NCBI GenBank assembly: GCA_001767695.1
Contig: MELR01000023.1
Coordinates: forward strand, 16,326-69,716
DNA: 53,391 nt
Direction: 5' to 3'
Source: Actinobacteria bacterium RBG_16_68_21
GTDB lineage: Bacteria > Actinomycetota > Acidimicrobiia > Spongiisociales > UBA11373
Shown: in pieces, positions 2,786-49,557 of the stretch
Position numbering within the stretch: position 1 is the stretch's first letter
How the letters are laid out: each line of letters opens with the position of its first letter
The notes under the pieces: generated by a model
What the model was told of the DNA's origin: nothing
What the model saw: only the letters and a program-made list of their open reading frames with translations
Database searches by the model: none
Position numbers and translations under genes: made by a program

Positions 2786-2832
2786 CAGCGGACAGCGGAC
2801 AGCGGACAGCGGACAGCGGACAGCGGACAGCG
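2786..2832. repeat. tandem heptamer array (CAGCGGA) x6.7
   Basis: Perfect 7-nt tandem repeat read directly from the sequence. It lies in the convergent ispF/GDPD spacer and ends 2 nt before the GDPD stop codon (2835-2837). Confidence 0.95.
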
Positions 2833-2834
2833 CT

Positions 2835-3569
2835 CTACCCCAACGCGGCGCGCCCCACGTCGGGCCGGTTGGTGAAGATGACGCCGACCCCGGCGGCGGC
2901 GAGGCGTCGCATCTCGCCCGGGTCGTCGGTCCACCAGACTCCGATCTCGATTCCCCTCCGGCCCGCAGCGGCCACGACCGCGTCGGCCTGCCCGCCGCCC
3001 ATCGACATGAGCGGGGGGAAGAGCATCTCGATTCCCGGCACTGCGTCGAGAGCGTCGCGGGGGTCGGTACCGTGGTCGAGCACCAGGCCTGATCGCATTC
3101 CCGCCGCCAGCGCTGTTGCCACCGAGCCGCGATCGAACGACGAGAGCACGATGTCTCGCCGACCGCGTAGTGCCGCGACGGTCCGTGCCGCGACCGCGGC
3201 GTCGGGATCCCAATCGGGATCGGCGGGATCGTTCTTCACCTCGACGTCGATCCACATGCCGGCGCAGGCGGCGATGGCGGCGGCCAGGTCGGGGATACCC
3301 GGGTCGACCACGGCCAGTTCGTCGCGGGTCAGCGCGACGATGGGCCGGTTGGTTACCAACGCGTTGTGGTGAACCACGAGGGCGCCGTCGGCCGTCGCCC
3401 GAACATCCAACTCGACACCGTCGGCACCGAGCTCGGCGGCGTGTGTGAAGGCGGCGAGGGTGTTCTCCCGCCGGGCGTGCGACGCTCCGCGGTGGGCGAC
3501 GATCCACGGCCGGCCGGAAGGGTGGGGCACCGGGGGAGCATATGCGGGGCCGTGCAAGCCCGATACCAT
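2835..3569 (-). CDS. glycerophosphodiester phosphodiesterase family protein
   Basis: The WIVAHRGAS..ENTLAAF...GADGVELDVRATADGALVVHHN motif block is typical of GDPD enzymes. The start is uncertain; it lies only ~10 bp from the divergent cysS start. Confidence 0.8.
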   Translation of the reverse strand: MVSGLHGPAYAPPVPHPSGRPWIVAHRGASHARRENTLAAFTHAAELGADGVELDVRATADGALVVHHNALVTNRPIVALTRDELAVVDPGIPDLAAAIAACAGMWIDVEVKNDPADPDWDPDAAVAARTVAALRGRRDIVLSSFDRGSVATALAAGMRSGLVLDHGTDPRDALDAVPGIEMLFPPLMSMGGGQADAVVAAAGRRGIEIGVWWTDDPGEMRRLAAAGVGVIFTNRPDVGRAALG

Positions 3570-3579
3570 CCTCGCGCCG

Positions 3580-4983
3580 ATGAACGTCTACAACACCCTG
3601 GGCAGAGTCATGCAGCCACTGGAGCCGCGCACGCCCGGCGAAGTGTCGATGTACGTGTGCGGGCCGACCGTGCAGGCGGCTCCGCATGTCGGACACGGAC
3701 GACAGGCGGTGGCATTCGACGTGATCCGGCGGTATCTCGTGTGGCGCGGCTACGCGGTGCTATTCGTGACGAACATCACCGACGTCGAAGACAAAATCAT
3801 CAATGCTGCCGCCGAGGAGGGAATCACCGCCGAGGAGGTGGCCCGCCGGGCGACGGCCCAGTTCCTCGATGCCTACGGTCGGCTGCGGGTTCAGCCTGCG
3901 GACGAGCTGGTCTATGCGACCCACGAGATCCCGGCGATGATCGCCACCATCGCTCGGCTGATCGAGCGGGGTCATGCCTATCCCGCCGGGGGCGACGTGT
4001 ACTTCTCGGTGCGATCGCTTCGGGGCTACGGAAAGCTGAGCGGCCGCAACGTGGACGAGATGCGATCCGGCGCCCGCATCGACCCGGGGGAGCACAAGCA
4101 GGATCCGTTGGACTTCGCCCTGTGGAAGGCGTCGAAGCCGGGAGAGCCGGCCTGGGACTCGCCGTGGGGTTCGGGGCGACCGGGATGGCACATCGAGTGC
4201 TCTGCCATGGCCGTGGAACGCCTCGGGTTCGGGTTCGACATCCACGGCGGTGGTCTCGACCTGATCTTTCCTCACCACGAGAACGAGATCGCCCAGGCAG
4301 AGGGAGCGGAAGGAGATGAGCCGTTCGCCCGTTACTGGCTGCACAACGGGATGCTCAACCTGCGCGGCGAGAAGATGTCCAAATCCGAGGGCAACATCGT
4401 CGATCTGCTCGGACTTCTCGATCGCTACCGACCAGAGGCGGTACGGCTCTACTACCTGCGTGCCCACTACCGGCAGCCCCTCGAATTCGGTGACGACCTG
4501 CTGGCCGACGCCGAGGCATCGCTCGACCGGCTGTGGGCCTTCCGCCGGCGGATCGGTACCGTCGGCGACGCCCCCGATGCCGGGGTGGTCGCCGCCTTCC
4601 AGGCGGCGATGGACGAGGACTTCAACACGGCGGGAGCGATGGCAGTGCTGTTCGATGCGGTGCGCGAGGGCAACCGGCTCGCCGATTCCGGCGAAGATGC
4701 CACGCCGATCGCCGCCGCCTACGACGAGATCGTCGCCGTGCTGGCCATCGGCGAGGACGCCGTCGACGTGACCGACCTCGCCGGGGATCTCGGCGCTCTC
4801 GGGGCGGAGCTGGGGGTGGATGCGACGGAGCCGAGGGCCATCGTCGACGCCCTGGTCGCACTCCGTTCGGCGGCCCGGGAGGGGCGCGACTTCGCCACCT
4901 CCGATCGGATCCGCGACGAGCTGACCGAGCTCGGGATCGTTCTCGAGGATGGCGCCGATGGCACCACCTGGCATCGGCGATAG
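3580..4983 (+). CDS. cysS: cysteine--tRNA ligase
   Basis: It has the class I HIGH-type motif (PHVGHGR), the KMSKS motif and WGSGRPGWHIECSAM. I place the start at ATG 3580 (MNVYNTLG); the upstream part of ORF 3445 overlaps the GDPD gene. Confidence 0.9.
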   Translation: MNVYNTLGRVMQPLEPRTPGEVSMYVCGPTVQAAPHVGHGRQAVAFDVIRRYLVWRGYAVLFVTNITDVEDKIINAAAEEGITAEEVARRATAQFLDAYGRLRVQPADELVYATHEIPAMIATIARLIERGHAYPAGGDVYFSVRSLRGYGKLSGRNVDEMRSGARIDPGEHKQDPLDFALWKASKPGEPAWDSPWGSGRPGWHIECSAMAVERLGFGFDIHGGGLDLIFPHHENEIAQAEGAEGDEPFARYWLHNGMLNLRGEKMSKSEGNIVDLLGLLDRYRPEAVRLYYLRAHYRQPLEFGDDLLADAEASLDRLWAFRRRIGTVGDAPDAGVVAAFQAAMDEDFNTAGAMAVLFDAVREGNRLADSGEDATPIAAAYDEIVAVLAIGEDAVDVTDLAGDLGALGAELGVDATEPRAIVDALVALRSAAREGRDFATSDRIRDELTELGIVLEDGADGTTWHRR

Positions 4984-5851: not shown

Positions 5852-5930
5852 GACAGACCCAGGCTACCGCCATGTCTTCCGCTTCAGCATGAGCCGGAGG
5901 TTCGTGGCATCCCCGAATTCCAGCTGGAGT

Positions 5931-5982
5931 TGGTCATTGGTCATTGCTCATTGCTCATTGCTCATTGCTCATCGCTCATCGC
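5931..5982. repeat. tandem heptamer array TGGTCAT x2, TGCTCAT x4, CGCTCAT x1, decaying
   Basis: Read directly from the sequence. It lies between tRNA-Thr (-) and the DUF3263 gene (+). Confidence 0.95.
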
Positions 5983-9592: not shown

Positions 9593-9663
9593 TAGGCCTC
9601 GCTTTGCTCGGCCTGCGATTGGCGAAGCGTGAGCTAGGCAGATGGTGTCGGCGAGATGTCGCC

Positions 9664-9705
9664 TATTGCTAATTGCCAATTGCCAATTGCCAATTGCCAA
9701 TTGCG
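9664..9705. repeat. tandem heptamer array (AATTGCC) x6 (minus-strand reading TGGCAAT)
   Basis: Read directly from the sequence. It is unusually AT-rich for this DNA and ends 64 bp upstream of the alaX-like start. Confidence 0.95.
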
Positions 9706-9769: not shown

Positions 9770-10486
9770 ATGACCGAGGAACTGGCCGCCACCGATGCCT
9801 ATCTCCGGGAGACGACGGCGAGCGTCGTGGCCGTGAGCGAGGAGGGGATCGTTCTCGATCGAACGGTGTTCTATGCGCGGGGCGGCGGACAACCCGGGGA
9901 CACCGGGATGCTCGAATGGCCCGGAGGAACGGTCGGCATCACCGACACCTTCAAGCGCGGGGGCGAAGTTATCCACGTTCCCGCGGGACCGCCGCCCCCG
10001 GTGGGCACCCAGGTGGTCGCCCGGATCGATTGGCAGCGGCGGCACACGCTGATGCGCACCCACACCGCGTTGCACGTGCTCTCGGCGGTCATCTGGCGCG
10101 ACTTCGATGCCAAGGTCACCGGCGGGAACATGGAACCAGGAGTCGCTCGCATGGACTTCGAACTCGACGCGATCAGCGTCGAGTTCGGCAGAGAGGTCGA
10201 GGTCCGGCTCAGTGAGGCGCTGGCGGGCGAACACCCGGTGACTGTCCGGTTCATGTCGCGGTCCGAGGCCATCGCCGACCCCGACCTCATCCGAACCAAG
10301 GTGAACCTGATCCCGGAGTCGGTAGACCCGATCCGGGTGATCGAGATCGGGACGATCGACAAACAGGCGGACGGAGGCACCCATGTCGCCAACACCTCAG
10401 AGGTGGGCAGGGTCCGGGTCGTCAAGACGGAGAGCAAGGGCAAGGGCAACAAGCGCATGCGGATCGAGCTCGACCAATCCAGATGA
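9770..10486 (+). CDS. alanyl-tRNA editing protein (AlaX-M-like, Thr/Ala-tRNA synthetase second additional domain)
   Basis: It shows TVFYARGGGQPGDTG, HTALHVLS and GGTHV motifs. The start at ATG 9770 is preceded by GAGGAGGA. The upstream part of ORF 9656 is array translation. Confidence 0.8.
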   Translation: MTEELAATDAYLRETTASVVAVSEEGIVLDRTVFYARGGGQPGDTGMLEWPGGTVGITDTFKRGGEVIHVPAGPPPPVGTQVVARIDWQRRHTLMRTHTALHVLSAVIWRDFDAKVTGGNMEPGVARMDFELDAISVEFGREVEVRLSEALAGEHPVTVRFMSRSEAIADPDLIRTKVNLIPESVDPIRVIEIGTIDKQADGGTHVANTSEVGRVRVVKTESKGKGNKRMRIELDQSR

Positions 10487-16793: not shown

Positions 16794-16800
16794 GAATCGC

Positions 16801-16917
16801 TGCCGCTGCCCGCCGAGCGCTACCGGCTGCTCGCACCCGCTGCCGGCTACCCGCAAGACCGTCGCATTGCGTATCGCGTGTGGCGTGCTGCGAATCACGA
16901 ACTACGAATCACGACCT
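16801..16917. repeat. degenerate heptamer array (TGCCCGC/TACCGGC/TGCCGGC/TACCCGC ... GCGTGTG/GCGAATC/ACGAACT/ACGAATC)
   Basis: The 7-nt period is visible by eye, with one 6-nt unit. The array fills the spacer from the ACAD stop to the PQQ-dehydrogenase stop codon (16918-16920). Confidence 0.75.
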
Positions 16918-18399: not shown

Positions 18400-19521
18400 G
18401 TGCAGGCTGATAATCCGCCGATGCAACGCCTGTTCCACGTCACCCCCGGTGCCGCCGAGGCCGTGGAGGTGGACGTCTCCCGACTTGGCGCAGCCCGCAC
18501 CGCCGGCGGATGGATCTGGCTGGATGTCACCGAGTTCATCCCCGGGGAGGTCCACGAGGTCGCCGGGGTCTTCGGCTTCGATCCCCTGGCGGTGCAGGAC
18601 GTTCTCGACTGGAGCGAGTATCCCAAGGTCGACGACCACGCCGACTACACCTTCATCGTCGGGCACGGCATCTCCACCGCTCCGGCCGAGCGCCTGGAGA
18701 CCACCGAGTACGACGTCTTCCTCGGCGTCGACTACGTGGTGACCTTCCACCAGGAAGACCTCCCCGGGTTCAGATGGGGCCGGGAGCACATCGTCGCTTC
18801 CGGGTCGATGACCGAGGGTTCGCCCGACATCCTTTGGGGACGGGTGGCCGAGGCCGAGGCGGGCCGCTTCAAACCGATCGTCGACGGCCTGGACCTCCGG
18901 ATCGGCGACCTCGAAGACCGGGCAATCGTGGCCGACCCCACCGTGCCCGCCGACGTGCTCGGGCTGCGCAGAGACGTGCAGACCCTGCGTCAGATCGTGG
19001 TCGCCGAGCGCGAGGTCTTCCGCGAGGTGGCCAGGGGGGAGTTGGTTGGCATCACCCGACGCGGGGCACGCCGGCTCGGTCATGTGTTCGACGACTTCTC
19101 CCGGCTCGCCGAGATCCTCGATGGTGCCCGCCTCCTGCTCGGCAATGTGCTCGACACGTACCGGGGAACTGTCGCCGAACGGGCCAACGAGGTGATGAAG
19201 GTCCTCACGGTCTTCGCTGCCATCGTGCTCCCGCTCTCGCTGCTCGCCGGCATCTACGGGATGAACTTCTCGCACATGCCCGAACTGGCGTGGCGCTGGG
19301 GTTACGCCGGGTTGATCGGCGTGATGGTGGTCGTCGGGGTCGGGTTGTGGTCGTACTTCTCGCGGCGCGGATTCATCGGCGGGCCCCGGCTCAGTCGGGT
19401 GCCGGGCGCGGTCGGGAAGGGCCTGGTCGACCTGGTCAAGCTGACCACCAAACCGGCCACGATGCTGCTGCACCTGGCGACGCGGCCGCCCGACGGTCGA
19501 AACGAGGGCGAATCGGGATGA
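18400..19521 (+). CDS. corA: magnesium/cobalt transporter CorA
   Basis: It has the YGMNF (GMN) motif before the last TM helix and CorA-like length. The start could be GTG 18400 or ATG 18421. Confidence 0.85.
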   Translation: MQADNPPMQRLFHVTPGAAEAVEVDVSRLGAARTAGGWIWLDVTEFIPGEVHEVAGVFGFDPLAVQDVLDWSEYPKVDDHADYTFIVGHGISTAPAERLETTEYDVFLGVDYVVTFHQEDLPGFRWGREHIVASGSMTEGSPDILWGRVAEAEAGRFKPIVDGLDLRIGDLEDRAIVADPTVPADVLGLRRDVQTLRQIVVAEREVFREVARGELVGITRRGARRLGHVFDDFSRLAEILDGARLLLGNVLDTYRGTVAERANEVMKVLTVFAAIVLPLSLLAGIYGMNFSHMPELAWRWGYAGLIGVMVVVGVGLWSYFSRRGFIGGPRLSRVPGAVGKGLVDLVKLTTKPATMLLHLATRPPDGRNEGESG

Positions 19522-23802: not shown

Positions 23803-23858
23803 TTCCAGGTTCCAGCAAGAACTGGCGACTGGCGACTGGCAACCGGCAACCGACTCTC
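23803..23858. repeat. heptamer array TTCCAGG/TTCCAGC/AAGAACT then GGCGACT x2, GGCAACC x2
   Basis: Read directly from the sequence. It starts 76 bp upstream of the DUF47 start. Confidence 0.9.
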
Positions 23859-24131: not shown

Positions 24132-25375
24132 TGTCGCGCGACATAGTGCACACCTGAGCTGGGAGGTGGCACGTGTCGTTGGGGCGGCTGGTGGTGACGG
24201 CGGTGGTGGTGGAGGGTCGGTCGAAGAGTGAGGTGGCTCGGGAGTACGGGGTGTCGCGGCGGTGGGTGCATGAGCTGGTCCGGCGGTTCGAGGCTGAGGG
24301 AGAGGTGGGTTTGGCGCCCCGGTCCCGTCGCCCCAGGCGCAGCCCCCAGCAGACTTCGGTGGGTCTCGAGGCTGAGATCATCGAGTTGCGCAAGCTGCTT
24401 GCCGAGGAGGGTCTGGATGCGGGGGCCCACACCATCGCCTTCCACCTCCAGCGCCGCCACGGGACGACTCCGTCGCCCTCGACGATCTGGCGGATCCTCG
24501 TTCGGTGGGGCTTTGTCACCCCCCAGCCGCAGAAACGGCCCAAGAGCTCCTATATGCGTTTCGAGGCCGACCAGCCCAACGAACGGTGGCAGGCCGACAT
24601 CACGCACTGGGGTCTGGGAGACGGCACCGAGGTCGAGATCCTCAACGTCGTCGACGACCACTCCCGGCTGCTGATCGCCTCCGACGCCTATACGACCACC
24701 AAGGCCGCCGACGTGGTCACCAGCTTCCACCGTGGCTTTGCCGCCTGGGGGCTGCCGGCAACGGTGCTCACCGACAACGGGGCGGTGTTCACCGCCGCGG
24801 CTCGGGGCGGGGGCCGATGCGCCATCGAGATCGAGCTGGATCGCCTGGGGATCCGGATGCGTCACTCCGCCCCCTACCACCCCCAGACCTGCGGCAAGGT
24901 GGAACGGTTCCACCAGACCCTCAAGAAGTGGCTACGCCGTCAGGAACCTTCCACGAGCCTGCGGGAGCTGCAGGACAAGCTGGACACCTTCGCCGACTAC
25001 TACAACACCGTCCGCCCCCACCGGGCCGTGGGCCGACGCACTCCTCAGGAGGCCTTCGACGCCAGGCCCCGGGCCACCCCAGGAGATGTGGGCTTGGCGG
25101 CGACCAGCCACTATCGGGTGCGCCGAGATCGGGTCGACAAGGTGGGCCGAGTCACCCTCCGCTACAACAGCCAGCTCCACCACATCGGGCTGGGGCGACG
25201 TCACCGGGGCACCCGGGTCCTGCTCCTGGTAGCCGACCTCGAAGTGCGAGTCCTCACCGAGGATGGCGAACTGCTCAGGGACCTCACCCTCGATCCGTCC
25301 CGCGACTACCAGCCACAGGACACACCCTGATGTGGAAGGATGTCGCGAAACATCCGTGCACGATGTCTCGCGACA
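24132..25375 (+). mobile_element. IS481-family insertion sequence
   Basis: It has 20-bp imperfect inverted repeats: TGTCGCGCGACATAGTGCAC at 24132-24151, and the reverse complement of 25356-25375, TGTCGCGAGACATCGTGCAC (18/20). These flank a single transposase gene. Confidence 0.8.
24173..25330 (+). CDS. IS481 family transposase (HTH plus rve integrase core)
   Basis: It has an N-terminal HTH (SEVAREYGVSRRWVHELVRRF), and ERWQADITHW and TDNGAVFT blocks of a DDE integrase core. GGGAGG lies upstream of the GTG start. Confidence 0.9.
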   Translation: MSLGRLVVTAVVVEGRSKSEVAREYGVSRRWVHELVRRFEAEGEVGLAPRSRRPRRSPQQTSVGLEAEIIELRKLLAEEGLDAGAHTIAFHLQRRHGTTPSPSTIWRILVRWGFVTPQPQKRPKSSYMRFEADQPNERWQADITHWGLGDGTEVEILNVVDDHSRLLIASDAYTTTKAADVVTSFHRGFAAWGLPATVLTDNGAVFTAAARGGGRCAIEIELDRLGIRMRHSAPYHPQTCGKVERFHQTLKKWLRRQEPSTSLRELQDKLDTFADYYNTVRPHRAVGRRTPQEAFDARPRATPGDVGLAATSHYRVRRDRVDKVGRVTLRYNSQLHHIGLGRRHRGTRVLLLVADLEVRVLTEDGELLRDLTLDPSRDYQPQDTP

Positions 25376-25383
25376 TCACACGG

Positions 25384-25456
25384 CGCCCTCGGGAGGACTC
25401 GAACCTCCGACACACGGTTTAGGAAACCGTTGCTCTATCCCCTGAGCTACGAGGGC
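25384..25456 (-). tRNA. tRNA-Arg (anticodon CCT), CCA not encoded
   Basis: The reverse complement reads GCCCTCGTAGCTCAGGGGATAGAGCAACGGTTTCCTAAACCGTGTGTCGGAGGTTCGAGTCCTCCCGAGGGCG. The anticodon loop is TTCCTAA. Confidence 0.9.
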
Positions 25457-25677: not shown

Positions 25678-27015
25678 TCACGGTCCGACCGTGAACGGAA
25701 GCCACAGGCCGACATCGGTGCCGTCTTCGGCGCTGACGTCGCCGACGAATAACTCGTAGTCGCCCGCGGCCAACTGATCGATGGTGAACTCGAACCAACC
25801 CCACACCTCGGTGTAGTCGGTGGTGTCGAAGATCACGCTCGACTGTGCCGAGTACGAATAGGGGGCACCGCCGAGGGTTCCCGACCAGTCGGCGGCCACC
25901 AGGGCACCGGATTCCGGCAGGTCACCGGGGGCCGGGGCCTGGCGGAGCCGCACCTGCAGTGTCGCCTCGAACGGCCGAGCCCACCCGGCGACCGTGATCG
26001 GCGGGACGGGGAGGGGTCCGTTGAGGTCCCAGTTGATCGGATGGTCCACGGCGGCGAGGTCGGTGACGATGGCCTGCAGATCGAGGCCGGTGCCGGTGGG
26101 CGCGTCCACGGTGTCGATCACCAATTGCAGAGGAGCGGTCAGCCAGTAGACGTGAACTGCGCGGTTGTTGGCGAACTGCATGTCGAGGCTGATCGTGGGG
26201 GAACCGGCGGTGTGGCGGGTCACGAAGGCGTTCACCACCTCATTCCCCGAGTCGTGCCATGCCCATAGCTCGAGGGCGGTGGGCAGCGCCGACGGCACGT
26301 CCGGCGTGAAGTCCAGCGAGAGGAATCCGGGGAACGGTCCGGGCAGAGGCGTGGTGGCGCCGCCCAGGGGTGGCAGGGTGTCGGCGAGGACCGGGGTGCC
26401 CCCGCCGGCGTCGGCTCCGAAGGTCACCACGGTGCGCTCACAGTTCTGGTCCGACATGTGATGGAGGGCGTACACCGACGTTGCCGCGGTTCCTCCGGGC
26501 ACCGGGGGAGGCGGTGTCGCCGGGGTGATCGAACCCGCATCGACGCCGTAGTCATTGGGATCGGCGGAACAGGGCACGTCGGTGAACGCCGGCACCGGCA
26601 CCACGAACCCGGCATAGACCCAGCCTCCGGTGACCCCGGCGGCGGGGTAGTCGACCTCGTACCAGATAGCCCCGTTGCCGTCGGTGGCGCTCTGCCCCGT
26701 GGGGAACAACCCGACGCCGTTGGGAGGTACCGTCGCCAGCGGCGTAGGACCCGCCGCCGCAGTGGGTTGAATCAACAGTCCACCATCCGGGTCGCTCTTG
26801 GAGACCAGAGCAACCCCCAACTCACCGGTCGCCGCCGGGGCCGTCGTAGTCGTGGTCGCCGGCACGGCGGTGGTCGTGGTCGCGGTCGTGGTCGCGGGAG
26901 CGGTGGTGGTAGTGCTCGCCGGGATCGTCGTCGACCCTCCGCTGTCGTCGCCGCATGCGGCGACGATCACCGACACCACCATGACGACCGCTATCAGCTG
27001 TGCCCGCGTCCGCAT
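25678..27015 (-). CDS. lipoprotein with Thr-rich linker, SH3b-like and Gmad2/Ig-like regions
   Basis: It has a lipobox MRTRAQLIAVVMVVSVIVAAC with GGGAGGGGAG upstream and a poly-Thr/Ala/Pro linker. The domain guesses (GAIWYEVDY...GWVYAGFV as SH3b; C-terminal Ig-like) are from motif memory. Confidence 0.65.
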   Translation of the reverse strand: MRTRAQLIAVVMVVSVIVAACGDDSGGSTTIPASTTTTAPATTTATTTTAVPATTTTTAPAATGELGVALVSKSDPDGGLLIQPTAAAGPTPLATVPPNGVGLFPTGQSATDGNGAIWYEVDYPAAGVTGGWVYAGFVVPVPAFTDVPCSADPNDYGVDAGSITPATPPPPVPGGTAATSVYALHHMSDQNCERTVVTFGADAGGGTPVLADTLPPLGGATTPLPGPFPGFLSLDFTPDVPSALPTALELWAWHDSGNEVVNAFVTRHTAGSPTISLDMQFANNRAVHVYWLTAPLQLVIDTVDAPTGTGLDLQAIVTDLAAVDHPINWDLNGPLPVPPITVAGWARPFEATLQVRLRQAPAPGDLPESGALVAADWSGTLGGAPYSYSAQSSVIFDTTDYTEVWGWFEFTIDQLAAGDYELFVGDVSAEDGTDVGLWLPFTVGP

Positions 27016-30117: not shown

Positions 30118-30591
30118 TCAGACTCCCATAGTGGCTTCGGATCGCATCCCCAAGGCCTGAGGCCCGCGTAGCAACGCGACAACGCCACCGAATAGGCGCC
30201 GCATGGCTGCCATCGCCTCGTAGAAGTCCAGGTCTTCGATCGGGTCGCCCGCTTCGGTCCGGTATGCGTCGAAATGGTCGGTCCGTGCTTCGGGCAGGCG
30301 ATTCGACACCCAGAGGATGAGCGAGGCGCCGAGGTCGAACCAGGTGTCGGTGACCGTCGTGGCGGTCCAGTCGATGACCACCGGGCAGCGGGCACGTTCG
30401 TCGATCACGTTCCACGGGTGGAGATCCCAGTGTGCCACCCCGGCACGGCCCGGTGCCACTGAGTCGGCTCCCTGAGCCGCCCAGTCCAGCGCTAGTTGGC
30501 GAAGGCCGGGCGTGTCCGGGAAAGTGGGGAACCCGTCGGTGCTAGCGCTTTCCCACTCTGTTGAGCACCAGAGCCGCCAGGACGATGCCAC
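30118..30591 (-). pseudogene. truncated aminoglycoside/choline-kinase-type phosphotransferase (C-terminal lobe only)
   Basis: It contains the catalytic-loop-like HWDLHPWNV and the IDW motif, but the ~190-aa N-terminal lobe is missing. Its 5' end is overlapped by a well-signalled small gene. Confidence 0.5.
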
Positions 30592-35664: not shown

Positions 35665-35670
35665 AAGACG

Positions 35671-35737
35671 CCTTCCGCCTTCCGCCTTCCGCTTCGACTC
35701 TTGCGGGTAGCGGGTGCGGGTAGCCGGTGGCGGCGGC
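35671..35737. repeat. heptamer array CCTTCCG x3 then GGTAGCG/GGTGCGG/GTAGCCG/GTGGCGG
   Basis: Read directly from the sequence. It spans from 7 nt after the fabH stop to the MBL hydrolase stop codon (35738-35740). Confidence 0.85.
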
Positions 35738-36971: not shown

Positions 36972-36999
36972 CGGAAACTGGAAACGGGAAAGTCGAAAC
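36972..36999. repeat. heptamer array CGGAAAC/TGGAAAC/GGGAAAG/TCGAAAC
   Basis: Read directly from the sequence. Confidence 0.8.
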
Positions 37000-37255: not shown

Positions 37256-37297
37256 TACGGCGCACCGGCTGCCGGCGTCCGGCTACCGGCAAGACCC
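37256..37297. repeat. heptamer array (NNCCGGC): TACGGCG/CACCGGC/TGCCGGC/GTCCGGC/TACCGGC/AAGACCC
   Basis: Read directly from the sequence. It is closely related to the 16841-16861 segment. Confidence 0.75.
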
Positions 37298-44433: not shown

Positions 44434-44455
44434 TTGACGGCTGCGCCGTCAACTC
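44431..44455. terminator. hairpin between convergent plsB and nfu-like genes
   Basis: GAGTTGACGG pairs with CCGTCAACTC as a 10-bp stem with a 5-nt loop. It overlaps the nfu-like stop codon, and no U-tract is present. Confidence 0.45.
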
Positions 44456-45071
44456 ACTTCTTCGCCGCCTCGTAGTACGGGTTGGTGCCGGAGGCGTGGT
44501 CGGTGACGTCGATGATCGCTCCCACCTCGGGCACCGCGGTGCGAATCGCCACCTCGATGCCCTGACCGAGGGTCACCTGGGCGAGCCCGCAGCCGACACA
44601 CCCTCCGCCGAGGCGCAGGTATACGGTGTCGCCCTCCACGGCGACCAGTTCGGCGAAGCCGCCGTGGCCGGCGATCGCCGGGTTGATCTGGGTCTCCAAG
44701 ATGGTGGCGATCTTGTCGGCCAGAGGCCCGGTGAGCTCTGCGGTCCCGGCAGCGATCTTCGGACTCGGGCTGTTGGGATTGTCGATCCCGAGCGTTCCTT
44801 CGCCGGCACGGATGGTGGCTCCCTCCAGGCGGGCAACGCTGTCGGCGCGCACCACCACCGGAAGATCGTCGAACCGTTGCAGCACATCGGTGGCGGCGGC
44901 GTCGACGACCGGGATGAAGGTGAGCTCATAGGTGAAGAGGAGGCCCTTCACCCCGGTGATGCTCACGGTGAGAGCGAGCTCTTCGGCATCGGGTTCCTGG
45001 GCGCGAATGCCGAGGATGGCCTCCACGGCCTCCGGCGTGATCGAGATGACGGAGCGGTCCTCGATGGCCAT
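44454..45071 (-). CDS. Fe-S cluster assembly protein (NfuA-like: HesB/IscA-like N-domain plus Nfu C-domain)
   Basis: The C-terminal GGGCVGCG CxxC motif lies in an Nfu-type domain. The start is ATG 45071. Confidence 0.75.
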   Translation of the reverse strand: MAIEDRSVISITPEAVEAILGIRAQEPDAEELALTVSITGVKGLLFTYELTFIPVVDAAATDVLQRFDDLPVVVRADSVARLEGATIRAGEGTLGIDNPNSPSPKIAAGTAELTGPLADKIATILETQINPAIAGHGGFAELVAVEGDTVYLRLGGGCVGCGLAQVTLGQGIEVAIRTAVPEVGAIIDVTDHASGTNPYYEAAKK

Positions 45072-45129
45072 GGCGGGGGATGGTAGACGAGGCGCGGTTT
45101 CGAGCCACGCGGGAAGTCGTGGGCAGCAA

Positions 45130-45280
45130 GCGAAAGGCGATGAGCGATGAGCGAGATCCGGCCGGCAGGCCTCTTGTGACAACTGGAAACTGGAAACCGG
45201 CAACCCTTCCGGGTGACGGGTGACGGGTGACGGGTGACGGGCGAGGGGAAACTGGAAAGTGGAAACTGGAAACTGGGATC
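45130..45280. repeat. composite heptamer array of about 21 units (GCGATGA block, TGGAAAC/CGGCAAC block, GGGTGAC x4, TGGAAAC/TGGAAAG x4)
   Basis: Read directly from the sequence. It occupies most of the divergent nfu-like / ATP-grasp spacer and ends 9 nt before the ATP-grasp ATG. Confidence 0.95.
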
Positions 45281-45288
45281 ATCCCCTC

Positions 45289-46503
45289 ATGCCCCGCATT
45301 GCCCTGGTGCTTCCCACCGGCTCCTATCGAGGCCCCGACTTCGTCGCCGCCGCCGATGAGCTGGGGGTCGACCTGCTCGTGGCCACCGACGGCACGTTCG
45401 GGATGACCTCCGGCCGGATATCCGGGGTGGTGACGGTGGATTGTGGTTCGCCGGCGGACGCGGCGGCAGCCCTGGTGGGTGCCGCCGAGTCACTACCCGT
45501 CGACGCGGTGCTGGGGGTGGACGACGGGGGCGTGATGGTTGCCGCCATCGCCGCCCGCGCCCTTGGGCTTCCCCACAACCCCGTGGAGGCAGTGGCGGCG
45601 ACCCGGGACAAGGCGGGAATGCGGTCCCTGCTCGCCGCCGCCGGTGTGCCTCAGCCTCGCTACCTGGTGGCCGGTGACGAAGAGCAGGCAGTGGCCGCCG
45701 CCGAGGAACTGGGGTTCCCGGTGGTCCTCAAACCGGTGTCTCTGTCGGCGAGTCGGGGCGTCATCCGCGCCGACGACGCGACGACGACCCGAACAGCCGT
45801 CTCTTGGATCGAATCCATCCTCGCCGAGGCGGGCTCCGATTGGCCGATCCTCGTGGAGGAGTACCTGCCGGGTGACGAGGTGGCCGTCGAGGCGCTGGCC
45901 ACGCCGTCGGGACTGGAGATTCTGGCCATCTTTGACAAACCCGACCCACTCGAAGGGCCTTTCTTCGAGGAGACGATCTACCTGACCCCGTCGCGGCACG
46001 CCCCGGAGACGGTGGCGGCCGTCGGCGAGATCGTCGCCGCCGCGGTGGCGGCGCTCGGGTTGGTGCACGGACCGGCGCATGCCGAGGTGAGGATCACCCC
46101 GCAAGGACCCAAGGTCGTGGAAGTGGCGGCGCGGTCCATCGGAGGGCTGTGCGGGCGATCGCTCCGCTTCGGAATGCTCCATCAGAGTCTCGAGGTGCTG
46201 CTGCTGCGAGCCGCCCTCGGGCTTCCCCGGCGGGGGATGGGCAGAGAGCCGGCCGCCAGTGGGGTGATGATGCTTCCCATCCCCGCCGACGGAATCTTGC
46301 GGGCAGTGCGCGGGCGCCACGCGGTGGCCGAGGTTCCGCTGGTCACGTCGTTGGAGATCACCATCCCGATCGGGCGCCGGGTCAGGCCGCTGCCCGAGGG
46401 GGATCGCTATCTCGGATTCGTGTTTGCCTCCGGCGACGACCCGGCTGACGTGGAGGCGGCGCTCCGCGAAGCGCACGGGTTGCTCGAGTTCGTCATCGAG
46501 TGA
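45289..46503 (+). CDS. ATP-grasp domain-containing protein (carboxylate-amine ligase-like)
   Basis: It has the central ATP-grasp pattern (RDKAGMRSLL...GFPVVLKP...ILVEEYLPGDEVAVE...HAEVRIT). The start is ATG 45289. Confidence 0.7.
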   Translation: MPRIALVLPTGSYRGPDFVAAADELGVDLLVATDGTFGMTSGRISGVVTVDCGSPADAAAALVGAAESLPVDAVLGVDDGGVMVAAIAARALGLPHNPVEAVAATRDKAGMRSLLAAAGVPQPRYLVAGDEEQAVAAAEELGFPVVLKPVSLSASRGVIRADDATTTRTAVSWIESILAEAGSDWPILVEEYLPGDEVAVEALATPSGLEILAIFDKPDPLEGPFFEETIYLTPSRHAPETVAAVGEIVAAAVAALGLVHGPAHAEVRITPQGPKVVEVAARSIGGLCGRSLRFGMLHQSLEVLLLRAALGLPRRGMGREPAASGVMMLPIPADGILRAVRGRHAVAEVPLVTSLEITIPIGRRVRPLPEGDRYLGFVFASGDDPADVEAALREAHGLLEFVIE

Positions 46504-49438: not shown

Positions 49439-49557
49439 ATGCCAGGGACCAGTTGCCAGTTGCCAGTCTCCAGTCTCCAGTCTCCAGCAAGAAGGGTCCG
49501 AGGGCCGGTCGCTCGGGCGATGGTGTCTGGTCTCTGGCGGGTGTCGGGAGACGGGCG
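49439..49557. repeat. heptamer array; minus-strand reading TGGAGAC x3, TGGCAAC x2, then degenerate units
   Basis: The plus strand reads ATGCCAG/GGACCAG/TTGCCAG x2/TCTCCAG x3/CAAGAAG..., with 7-nt phase traceable up to the PPOX stop codon at 49565. Confidence 0.9.

Follow-up and report, generated by a model that had tools for sequence, protein, structure and literature searches.

Why should the spacer between two divergent genes be filled with tandem repeats of seven nucleotides, and do those repeats serve the genes on either side? The question is raised by a 53,391-nt stretch of DNA (53 kb at 68% GC; hereafter the window) from an uncultured member of the Acidimicrobiia, Actinobacteria bacterium RBG_16_68_21, in which a 217-bp spacer (45072–45288) separates a gene encoding a NifU-like protein from one encoding an ATP-grasp ligase. 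An initial annotation of this DNA described a large heptad array in the spacer and proposed a regulatory role for it. The evidence described below indicates that the array is probably a composite heptanucleotide microsatellite, that is, a simple sequence repeat (SSR) or variable number tandem repeat (VNTR), generated by replication slippage. It would be largely neutral spacer DNA, one of about ten such arrays in the window, with any effects on gene expression arising as a by-product.

Read directly, positions 45130–45276 tile as 21 heptads in four blocks (A–D, Table 1) in the order GCGAAAG, GCGATGA x2, GCGAGAT, the non-repeat units CCGGCCG GCAGGCC TCTTGTG, then ACAACTG, GAAACTG, GAAACCG, GCAACCC, TTCCGGG, TGACGGG x4, CGAGGGG, AAACTGG, AAAGTGG, and AAACTGG x2. 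The tiling listed in the initial annotation is thereby reproduced heptad for heptad, as is its observation that a single NGGNNAC phase runs across 45211–45280; the block at 45184–45204 is displaced from this phase by the six nucleotides CCTTCC (45205–45210). Tandem Repeats Finder (TRF) reports four period-7 sub-arrays (45137–54, 45181–97, 45210–41, and 45247–76). Self-identity over 45130–45280 is 0.67 at lag 7, 0.55 at lag 14, and 0.46 at lag 21, whereas 10,000 shuffles never exceeded 0.47, whatever the lag. The TRF and shuffle results establish the tandem, head-to-tail organization that characterizes bacterial SSR/VNTR loci. Furthermore, TRF identifies this as the biggest composite heptad array of the window, and Pfam assignments of both flanking genes confirm that it fills a divergent intergenic region, both of which had been claimed. 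The ATP-grasp ATG lies 8 nt beyond one end of the array, and the NifU ATG 58 nt beyond the other. Identification as a CRISPR (clustered regularly interspaced short palindromic repeats), a miniature inverted-repeat transposable element, or a coding repeat was rejected, as the units are contiguous without spacers, there are no terminal inverted repeats, and the open reading frames (ORFs) in the array carry no coding signal.

The behavior of the array has been probed by comparison with close strains. Eight near-identical metagenome contigs (labeled L with a number) from at least six samples carry flanks that are 99.2–99.9% identical to the window and encode identical or near-identical flanking proteins. 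In the complete contigs the spacer measures 203 bp with 3 block C units (L005), 217 bp with 5 units (L224, as in the window), 231 bp with 7 units (L002), 252 bp with 10 units (L001/L086 and L003), or 259 bp with 11 units (L223). These differences consist of whole GGGNGAC units and affect block C only; neither the unique sequence nor blocks A and B have changed. The initial annotation had suggested this comparison, reasoning that an invariant array would speak against regulation; the array proved variable, with block gain and loss giving 3, 5, 7, 10, or 11 units. One contig, L225, is partial and begins inside the array. It contains at least 8 block C units, a block D reduced to one unit, and an odd 8-nt unit, and has been treated cautiously.

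Whole-unit copy-number change between close strains, as expected of an SSR/VNTR, is seen in block C, and the arrays at 35669 and 16891 vary as well. At 16891, L091 carries 7.4 units and the window 3.4 (a 28-bp gain). Of the paired arrays at 35669/35703, the first has gained a unit in L086 and the second has lost 12 nt. Where covered, the arrays at 23820 (5 contigs), 36973, 37264, and 49449 (identical in L001), which are short or imperfect, are unchanged; the comparison covered the arrays from 16891 to 49449. Altogether, five sub-arrays have been seen to change, namely block C, 16891, the 35669/35703 pair, and block D (the last in L225 only), with many-contig coverage for block C only. Instability also follows the number of perfect units, although in a small sample: block C (4.6 perfect units) has five alleles, and no change is seen in blocks A and B (2.4–2.6 units) or in the imperfect arrays at 23820, 36973, and 37264. 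Changes by whole units that fall mostly in the longest perfect block are the hallmark of replication slippage (slipped-strand mispairing).

Across the approximately 37 kb that could be compared with strain contigs, indels occur at three heptad-array sites (45211, 16891, and 35669/35703); apart from three 1-nt gaps, the remaining indels are differences of 82 bp and 5 bp, both within a decaying APH-like region. In that region the window is without 82 bp at 30132 (30132–30139) relative to L086, L087, L091, and L092, and an extra CCGGA is found at 30439 in two of them. The short APH-like ORF is called at 143 aa or 126 aa depending on the strain and looks like a decaying pseudogene.

It could be argued that short-read assembly of the metagenomes introduced the copy-number differences in error, as all of the comparison sequences are metagenome contigs and L225 begins inside the array with an irregular unit. 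This explanation is extremely improbable. Every block C allele is shorter than 80 bp, below both the k-mer (k141) and typical reads, and the differences are all exact multiples of 7. The 10-unit allele, together with an internal GTGTGAC variant, is identical in assemblies from two independent projects (ENA ERZ27256843 and JGI 3300030613), which argues against assembly error, and the window allele was found again in L224.

The array is not an isolated feature. About ten heptad arrays are present in the window, beginning at 2786, 5930, 9661, 16891, 23820, 35669, 35703, 36973, 37264, and 49449 in addition to 45130–45280. Exact period-7 runs number 13, compared with 0.53 on average (and never more than 4) in block shuffles, and there are none at periods 8–11. 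Based on gene calls from matching contigs and Pfam, all of the arrays are intergenic, occupying 3 convergent, 4 co-directional, and 2 divergent spacers. The convergent spacers lie between IspF and GDPD, acyl-CoA dehydrogenase and GSDH, and FabH-like and Lactamase_B genes; arrays in such 3'-3' spacers cannot be promoter devices. The restriction of the period-7 excess to non-coding DNA, another property of SSR/VNTR loci, is evident on 53 kb of genome, and the excess is common to the closest relatives only. Related units of the NGGNNAC type (TGGAAAC, TGGCGAC, TGGCAAC, TGGAGAC) recur at five window loci. Block A belongs to the same unit class as TCGCTCA at 5967–5982, once the latter is reverse-complemented and cyclically permuted to match GCGATGA. 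This unit is represented at two unlinked window loci (5930–5982 and 45137–45154), and it also occurs in the relative L220 (3966–3983).

The distribution of heptads among relatives was surveyed in 80 loci retrieved by ATP-grasp homology (1.22 Mb). The closest species-level genomes for the ATP-grasp protein are Acidimicrobiia/Actinomycetota metagenome-assembled genomes at 66–69% identity, and metagenome proteins reach 75–83%. The 53 kb of the four closest Acidimicrobiia loci (L006–L009) contain 21 period-7 runs, compared with 19 in the other 1.17 Mb, and the 80–81% relatives L220 and L222 are likewise heptad-rich. Consequently, the heptad habit belongs to the lineage and not to the NifU/ATP-grasp locus.

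If the array acts on its neighbors, its position relative to their promoters matters. A scan of 44900–45450 for E. coli-type sigma-70 and terminator consensus sequences gave no match, these consensus sequences being uninformative for a high-GC actinobacterium, and candidate promoters were instead sought through conservation of TANNNT near start codons in relatives. Neither the NifU nor the ATP-grasp ATG is preceded by a Shine-Dalgarno sequence. A TANNNT hexamer stands 6–8 nt ahead of the start codon in many window genes (e.g., TAGCGT, TACCCT, TAGCCT, TATTCT, GATAAT), and the arrangement GATAAT, 6 nt, ATG is present at another window gene. This pattern suggests that leaderless mRNAs are frequent in the window; the leaderless arrangement is common in Actinobacteria. 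Gene starts with a TANNNT-like hexamer and no Shine-Dalgarno sequence include those at 18421, 36640, 40297, 42065, 45071, and 49414, and clear GGAGG-type sites are found at other window genes (27015, 29724, 34675, and 41260).

At the locus itself, these features suggest that both flanking genes are leaderless, with −10 hexamers 6–8 nt before their ATGs. On the NifU side, GGATGGTA is kept in the window, L216, L220, and L222, with the positional equivalent TAACCT in L006, L008, and L009. The NifU promoter would thus be leaderless or nearly so, and its core (−10 and −35 region) would fit in the 58 bp of unique sequence, the array starting from about −58. On the ATP-grasp side, the putative −10 hexamer GATCAT overlaps the last degenerate unit of the array; its counterparts are GATCAT at equal distance in L220, TACGAT in L006 and L007, and a related TACCAT in L009. 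With just 8 nt between array and ATG, and with no Shine-Dalgarno sequence, overlap of the ATP-grasp promoter with the final units is very probable; the exception would be transcription initiated upstream of the array and reading through it. The claim that both promoters lie within or against the repeats is therefore probably correct for the ATP-grasp gene. It need not hold for the NifU gene, where the TACCAT hexamer and −35 region fit the unique DNA and GGATGGTA is present in relatives without an array.

These assignments bear on the possibility that the array is a tunable or contingency promoter, in which heptad (especially GGGTGAC) copy number would set ATP-grasp and/or NifU expression through the distance or phase of upstream elements. 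The location of the array in a divergent promoter region, abutting the ATP-grasp −10, is what this model expects, as is the finding of at least five alleles among near-identical strains; judging by L225, the −35-proximal block may be changeable too, and the heptad SSRs of ctxAB and hmw provide precedents. However, in contingency promoters the repeat tract lies between the −35 and −10 elements or in a regulator site. Here, block C would span roughly −44 to −78 relative to the ATP-grasp gene, upstream of the putative −35, with the −10 hexamers taken from conservation. Moreover, the allele steps of 7–42 bp (7, 14, 21, 28 bp, etc.) do not preserve helical phase, which suggests that the two promoters are independent of any fixed mutual geometry. 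The neighbors are also not the surface, restriction-modification, or host-interaction genes typical of contingency loci: a NifU-like protein and an ATP-grasp ligase are encoded here, and IspF, GDPD, FabH-like, PhoU, and similar proteins at other arrays, all of a housekeeping type. Arrays of identical kinds fill convergent spacers, relatives use the same gene pair with a repeat-less spacer of about 50 bp, and no regulatory role was seen for comparable repeats by Rehm et al. (PMC4692102). A dedicated tuning device is accordingly judged unlikely.

A more specific possibility is that block C functions as a G-quadruplex (G4) element, in which (GGGTGAC)n on the non-template strand would fold during transcription or replication and modulate promoter opening or block polymerases, thereby explaining the retention of at least four G-tracts. 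The canonical G3N4 motif GGGTGACGGGTGACGGGTGACGGG at 45211–45234 has at least four G3 tracts separated by loops of 1–7 nt, and the fold predicted with the G4 option of ViennaRNA (RNA parameters) uses the G4. At least four G-tracts are present in every complete allele (n = 5 distinct alleles), and GGGAATC heptads from Xanthomonas fold into G4 structures in vitro with a preference for four units (PMC4692102). Against this, G4 capability is confined to 1 of approximately 14 sub-arrays in the window, composition alone accounts for three other G4 motifs at 68% GC, and few alleles have been sampled. In addition, Rehm et al. found G4 heptads to be under-represented between divergent genes and to have no function (PMC4692102). 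A G4-based role is thus distinctly improbable.

Heptads could also serve as iterated binding sites for a DNA- or RNA-binding protein peculiar to the lineage, or form a 5' leader that titrates a regulator, as MacGregor hypothesized for the TAACTGA repeats of Beggiatoaceae (PMC4679880). The recurrence of NGGNNAC units at five window loci and the presence of (TGGAAAC)3 in more than 120 metagenome stretches, spanning 31–70% GC, could be read in this way. In viral contigs, however, (TGGAAAC)3 is no commoner than controls, with 13 matches compared with 7, 12, and 8 for heptads of the same composition; GGGTGAC gave 11. Tandem triples of arbitrary heptads are in general abundant. On the same grounds, TGGAAAC/AAACTGG was rejected as a special, widely shared unit with kinship to TAACTGA and CCCCAGT, control heptads being about equally frequent in viral contigs. 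At 80 metagenome loci, where a crude gene finder (GC content at third codon positions and ORFs) gave rough calls, (TGGAAAC)n lay in approximately 11 convergent, 18 co-directional (7 ++, 11 −−), and 1 divergent contexts. No orientation bias or promoter-specific pattern is apparent in these rough calls, and many arrays lie in 3'-3' spacers. This agrees with the under-representation between divergent genes reported by Rehm et al. Likewise, the array has no Rfam family, either at the gathering threshold or at E<=1, and folding of both strands gave no excess of structure (z −0.2 and +2.2), and a structured RNA was rejected on these results. Units differ wholly between relatives, and the starts, which appear leaderless, would leave no 5' untranslated region (UTR). 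A binding-site array or functional RNA is therefore very improbable.

How the array arose can be followed in the orthologous spacers. The divergent NifU/ATP-grasp pair is maintained in all relatives compared, L007 covering the ATP-grasp side only. No heptads are found in this spacer in L006 (approximately 50 bp), L008, L009 (a longer spacer), or L220. In L220 (81% aa identity) the spacer is 217 bp and contains a long hairpin instead. This hairpin (L220:9783–10000) is perfect, GCCTCTTGCCTCCCCCGG-AAGA-CCGGGGGAGGCAAGAGG, and the window keeps only the fragment GCCTCTTG, at 45166–45173. The spacer of L222 (80% aa; 9880–9960) contains the unrelated heptads AAGTCGC x3, GTCTGTC x2.7, and CTTGCTA/CTTGCCA, an independent birth of arrays at the locus. 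Closer relatives (L216–L219; 83% aa, approximately 81% nt) share a 131-bp spacer that is identical in four samples. In L216, a degenerate run (TGGAAAC TGGGAGC GGGAAGC TGGCAAC) stands directly before ATCATCACC-ATG, abutting a −10-like ATCATC, while the block A position is occupied by GCGAAAGCGAGGAGC only. The run aligns to block B of the window (MAFFT) and block D is absent. Consequently, the junction together with blocks C and D (approximately 75 bp) represent an expansion specific to the window lineage between the old block and the −10-like element. This history fits a microsatellite life cycle of proto-repeat, expansion, unit mutation, nested expansion, and decay.

The ATP-grasp −10 (GATCAT) would be the last degenerate unit of the array, and the −35 region a TGGAAAC unit. 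Since both would sit in the last units, new units could enter upstream without disturbing promoter-proximal sequence. Block C would then be mainly expandable spacer DNA between two independent divergent promoters; any effect on expression, whether via distance, G4 formation, or upstream contacts, would not be the reason for its existence. Of the regulatory interpretation offered initially, what survives is that the array fills a divergent intergenic region, is variable, and very probably overlaps the ATP-grasp promoter. A dedicated role is not indicated, given the similar arrays in convergent spacers, the lack of orientation bias of (TGGAAAC)n, and the relatives with no or unrelated heptads.

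Several observations weigh against the microsatellite interpretation. The slippage reading leaves the period of 7 without explanation. Allele turnover is not clock-like, as one 99.3%-identical strain has the window allele and 99.9%-identical ones differ. The recurrence of related units at five loci is not expected from pure chance; a sequence-specific factor, or units seeded from common motifs, could be behind it. Retention of G-tracts is compatible with selection for G4, a tuning effect of the array on expression is possible but unproven, and short-read assemblies could mis-size repeats, though all block C alleles are under 80 bp. A bolder proposal is that heptad microsatellites form an evolvable regulatory layer in this free-living lineage, in which growth and shrinkage of the G4-capable GGGTGAC block would tune the leaderless ATP-grasp (perhaps NifU) promoter in natural populations and −10-anchored arrays of any length would regenerate a −35-like TGGAAA at constant spacing. 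Such a layer is decidedly unlikely; were it real, contingency-locus logic would extend from host-adapted pathogens to the housekeeping genes of environmental bacteria.

Table 1. Coordinates of the array blocks, putative promoter elements, flanking genes, and other heptad arrays in the window.
Feature	Position	Strand	Basis or context
CAGCGGA x6.7	2786..2832		convergent spacer IspF (+) / GDPD (−)
TTGGTCA x2, TTGCTCA x4, TCGCTCA x2	5930..5982		between tRNA-Thr (−) and DUF3263 gene (+)
GCCAATT x6.3	9661..9704		co-directional spacer, upstream of AlaX-like gene
CGAATCA/CGAACTA x3.4, strain-variable	16891..16914		convergent spacer, directly past GSDH stop codon
AACTGGC/GACTGGC/AACCGGC x4.4	23820..23850		co-directional spacer, upstream of PhoU
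CGCCTTC x3.4 + GCGGGTA x4.6, strain-variable	35669..35733		whole 73-bp convergent spacer FabH-like (+) / Lactamase_B (−)
GGAAACT-type x3.9	36973..36999		co-directional (−) spacer
ACCGGCT-type x3.9	37264..37290		same spacer as 36973–36999
NifU-like (Nfu-type Fe-S scaffold), 205 aa, ATG at 45071	44454..45071	−	Pfam PF01106, E 1.9e-19
Putative NifU −10 hexamer TACCAT, 8 nt before ATG, outside array	45080..45085	−	conservation in relatives
Block A, GCGAAAG GCGATGA GCGATGA GCGAGAT	45130..45157		sequence, TRF; unchanged in all strain contigs
Non-repeat 21 nt, CCGGCCG GCAGGCC TCTTGTG, 7-nt register maintained	45158..45178		sequence
Block B, (ACAAC)TGGAAAC TGGAAAC CGGCAAC, ancestral	45179..45204		alignment to L216
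Junction CCTTCC, 6 nt, one-base phase shift	45205..45210		sequence
Block C, GGGTGAC x4 + GGGCGAG, hypervariable; G-quadruplex motif (G3N4)n	45211..45245	+	strain contigs; motif scan
Block D, GGGAAAC TGGAAAG TGGAAAC TGGAAAC TGGGATC	45246..45280	+	sequence, TRF
Putative −35-like TGGAAA, within block D, 18 nt before −10	45253..45258	+	inference
Putative ATP-grasp −10 GATCAT, preceded by TGG (matches extended −10 TGn), 6 nt before ATG	45277..45282	+	conservation in relatives
ATP-grasp / L-amino-acid-ligase-like (LAL_C2), 404 aa, ATG at 45289	45289..46503	+	Pfam PF13535, PF18603
CCAGTTG x2.7 + CCAGTCT x3.6	49449..49487		about 35 nt upstream of LiaF-TM gene (−); ends near its putative −35

An identical NifU-like protein is called on metagenome contigs, and ATP-grasp homologs begin at the same MP..ALV. 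Some database models place the ATP-grasp start at GTG 45259, inside the array (414/415 aa; cluster members P0122 and P0123). Because such models start inside the array, changes in repeat number produce spurious N-terminal ATP-grasp variants in databases. The arrays thus serve as a warning for gene callers, and they are also good strain markers for tracking populations in metagenomes.

Other features of the window were noted during the analysis. Repeats of period 14/20 (CGCTGCCCGCTACC-like) at 16798–16855 share the convergent spacer of the variable CGAATCA array. Nested repeats of period 6/12/18/36 (GTGGTC-type) at 26849–26919 lie in-frame inside the gene at 25678–27015 (−) and are coding, unlike the intergenic heptads. 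An insertion sequence-type transposase/integrase gene (rve and HTH domains) at 24173–25330 adjoins tRNA-Arg(CCT) at 25382–25456 and is found in all strain contigs examined. ARAGORN calls a 101-nt tRNA-Ser(GGA) at 4536–4636, with no Rfam report at the gathering threshold, inside a long high-GC3 ORF (3445–4983); the tRNA call is probably spurious, the alternative being an incorrect start for the ORF.

Tandem heptads are known from other bacteria, and comparison with these systems helps to place the array. In heterocystous cyanobacteria, short tandemly repeated repetitive (STRR) sequences have the units CCCCAGT, TTGGTCA, and CAACAGT. STRR heptamers of Calothrix and Nostoc are among the described cases (Calothrix report as cited in PMC4692102). 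Insofar as that citation describes them, they resemble the window arrays in forming tandem heptad families across intergenic DNA, and TTGGTCA itself occurs at 5930–5943. They belong, however, to another phylum and GC range, and the window units are many and mostly different, such that the shared TTGGTCA is most simply a coincidence. The window arrays do not belong to the STRR class, as the organism is an acidimicrobiian by best matches and a single short TTGGTCA x2 run (5930) is present.

The TAACTGA repeats of Beggiatoaceae, Cyanobacteria, and Bacteroidetes (MacGregor 2015, PMC4679880) are likewise intergenic direct heptad repeats at many loci, some of them just upstream of starts. In those genomes one dominant unit lies a few nucleotides from start codons and a translational role was suggested (PMC4679880), whereas the window has many units in all spacer types, no orientation bias, and genes that appear leaderless. 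A single dominant sense unit near starts, the mark of the TAACTGA type, is not seen among the window arrays.

In pathogens, heptads with a proven role have been described at promoters. Expression effects are reported to be demonstrated for the TTTTGAT promoter SSR of V. cholerae PctxAB (bioRxiv 10.1101/2021.05.14.444153) and for the 7-bp SSR of H. influenzae hmw1A/hmw2A (PMC8262952, PMC12721329). Similar to the array described here, these are 7-nt SSRs of strain-variable copy number in promoter regions. They reportedly act on virulence genes through a regulator site or 5'-UTR mechanism; in contrast, the window array lies between housekeeping-type genes and belongs to a genome-wide repeat class.

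A closer parallel is offered by the G3N4 heptads of Xanthomonas (GGGAATC) and Nostoc (GGGGA(C/T)T), for which G4 formation was shown in vitro for Xanthomonas and no function was demonstrated (Rehm et al. 2015, PMC4692102). They too are intergenic, variable in close relatives, and associated with all gene classes (PMC4692102). The window differs in its unit, GGGTGAC, which forms one block among non-G4 heptads, and in the location of that block between divergent genes, where such repeats were under-represented (PMC4692102). More generally, heptameric SSRs are over-represented in many bacterial genomes, and an explanation by polymerase slippage, linked to the footprint of the enzyme, has been put forward (Mrazek et al. 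2007, as cited in PMC4692102). As represented in that citation, these SSRs share with the window arrays head-to-tail 7-nt units, a strong intergenic bias, a genome-wide excess of period 7 over neighboring periods, and length variation in close relatives. Compared with the SSRs as described there, the window array is distinguished by its uncultured, 68% GC Acidimicrobiia host, its composite of four unit types, and its directly documented strain-level alleles.

No account of such repeats in Acidimicrobiia came up in literature searches. No new kind of system is revealed, as the heptad habit is already known from other bacteria. The natural alleles nevertheless document active heptad expansion and contraction in an uncultured Acidimicrobiia population. 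In addition, the alleles form a natural series, with 3–11 G4-capable units directly ahead of a putative leaderless promoter, that is usable to test repeat effects on transcription, a question left open for the heptads of Xanthomonas, Nostoc, and cyanobacteria. The array has the defining features of a heptanucleotide SSR/VNTR. It lacks those of a contingency promoter, as the tract would not lie between the putative promoter elements and the genes are of a housekeeping type.

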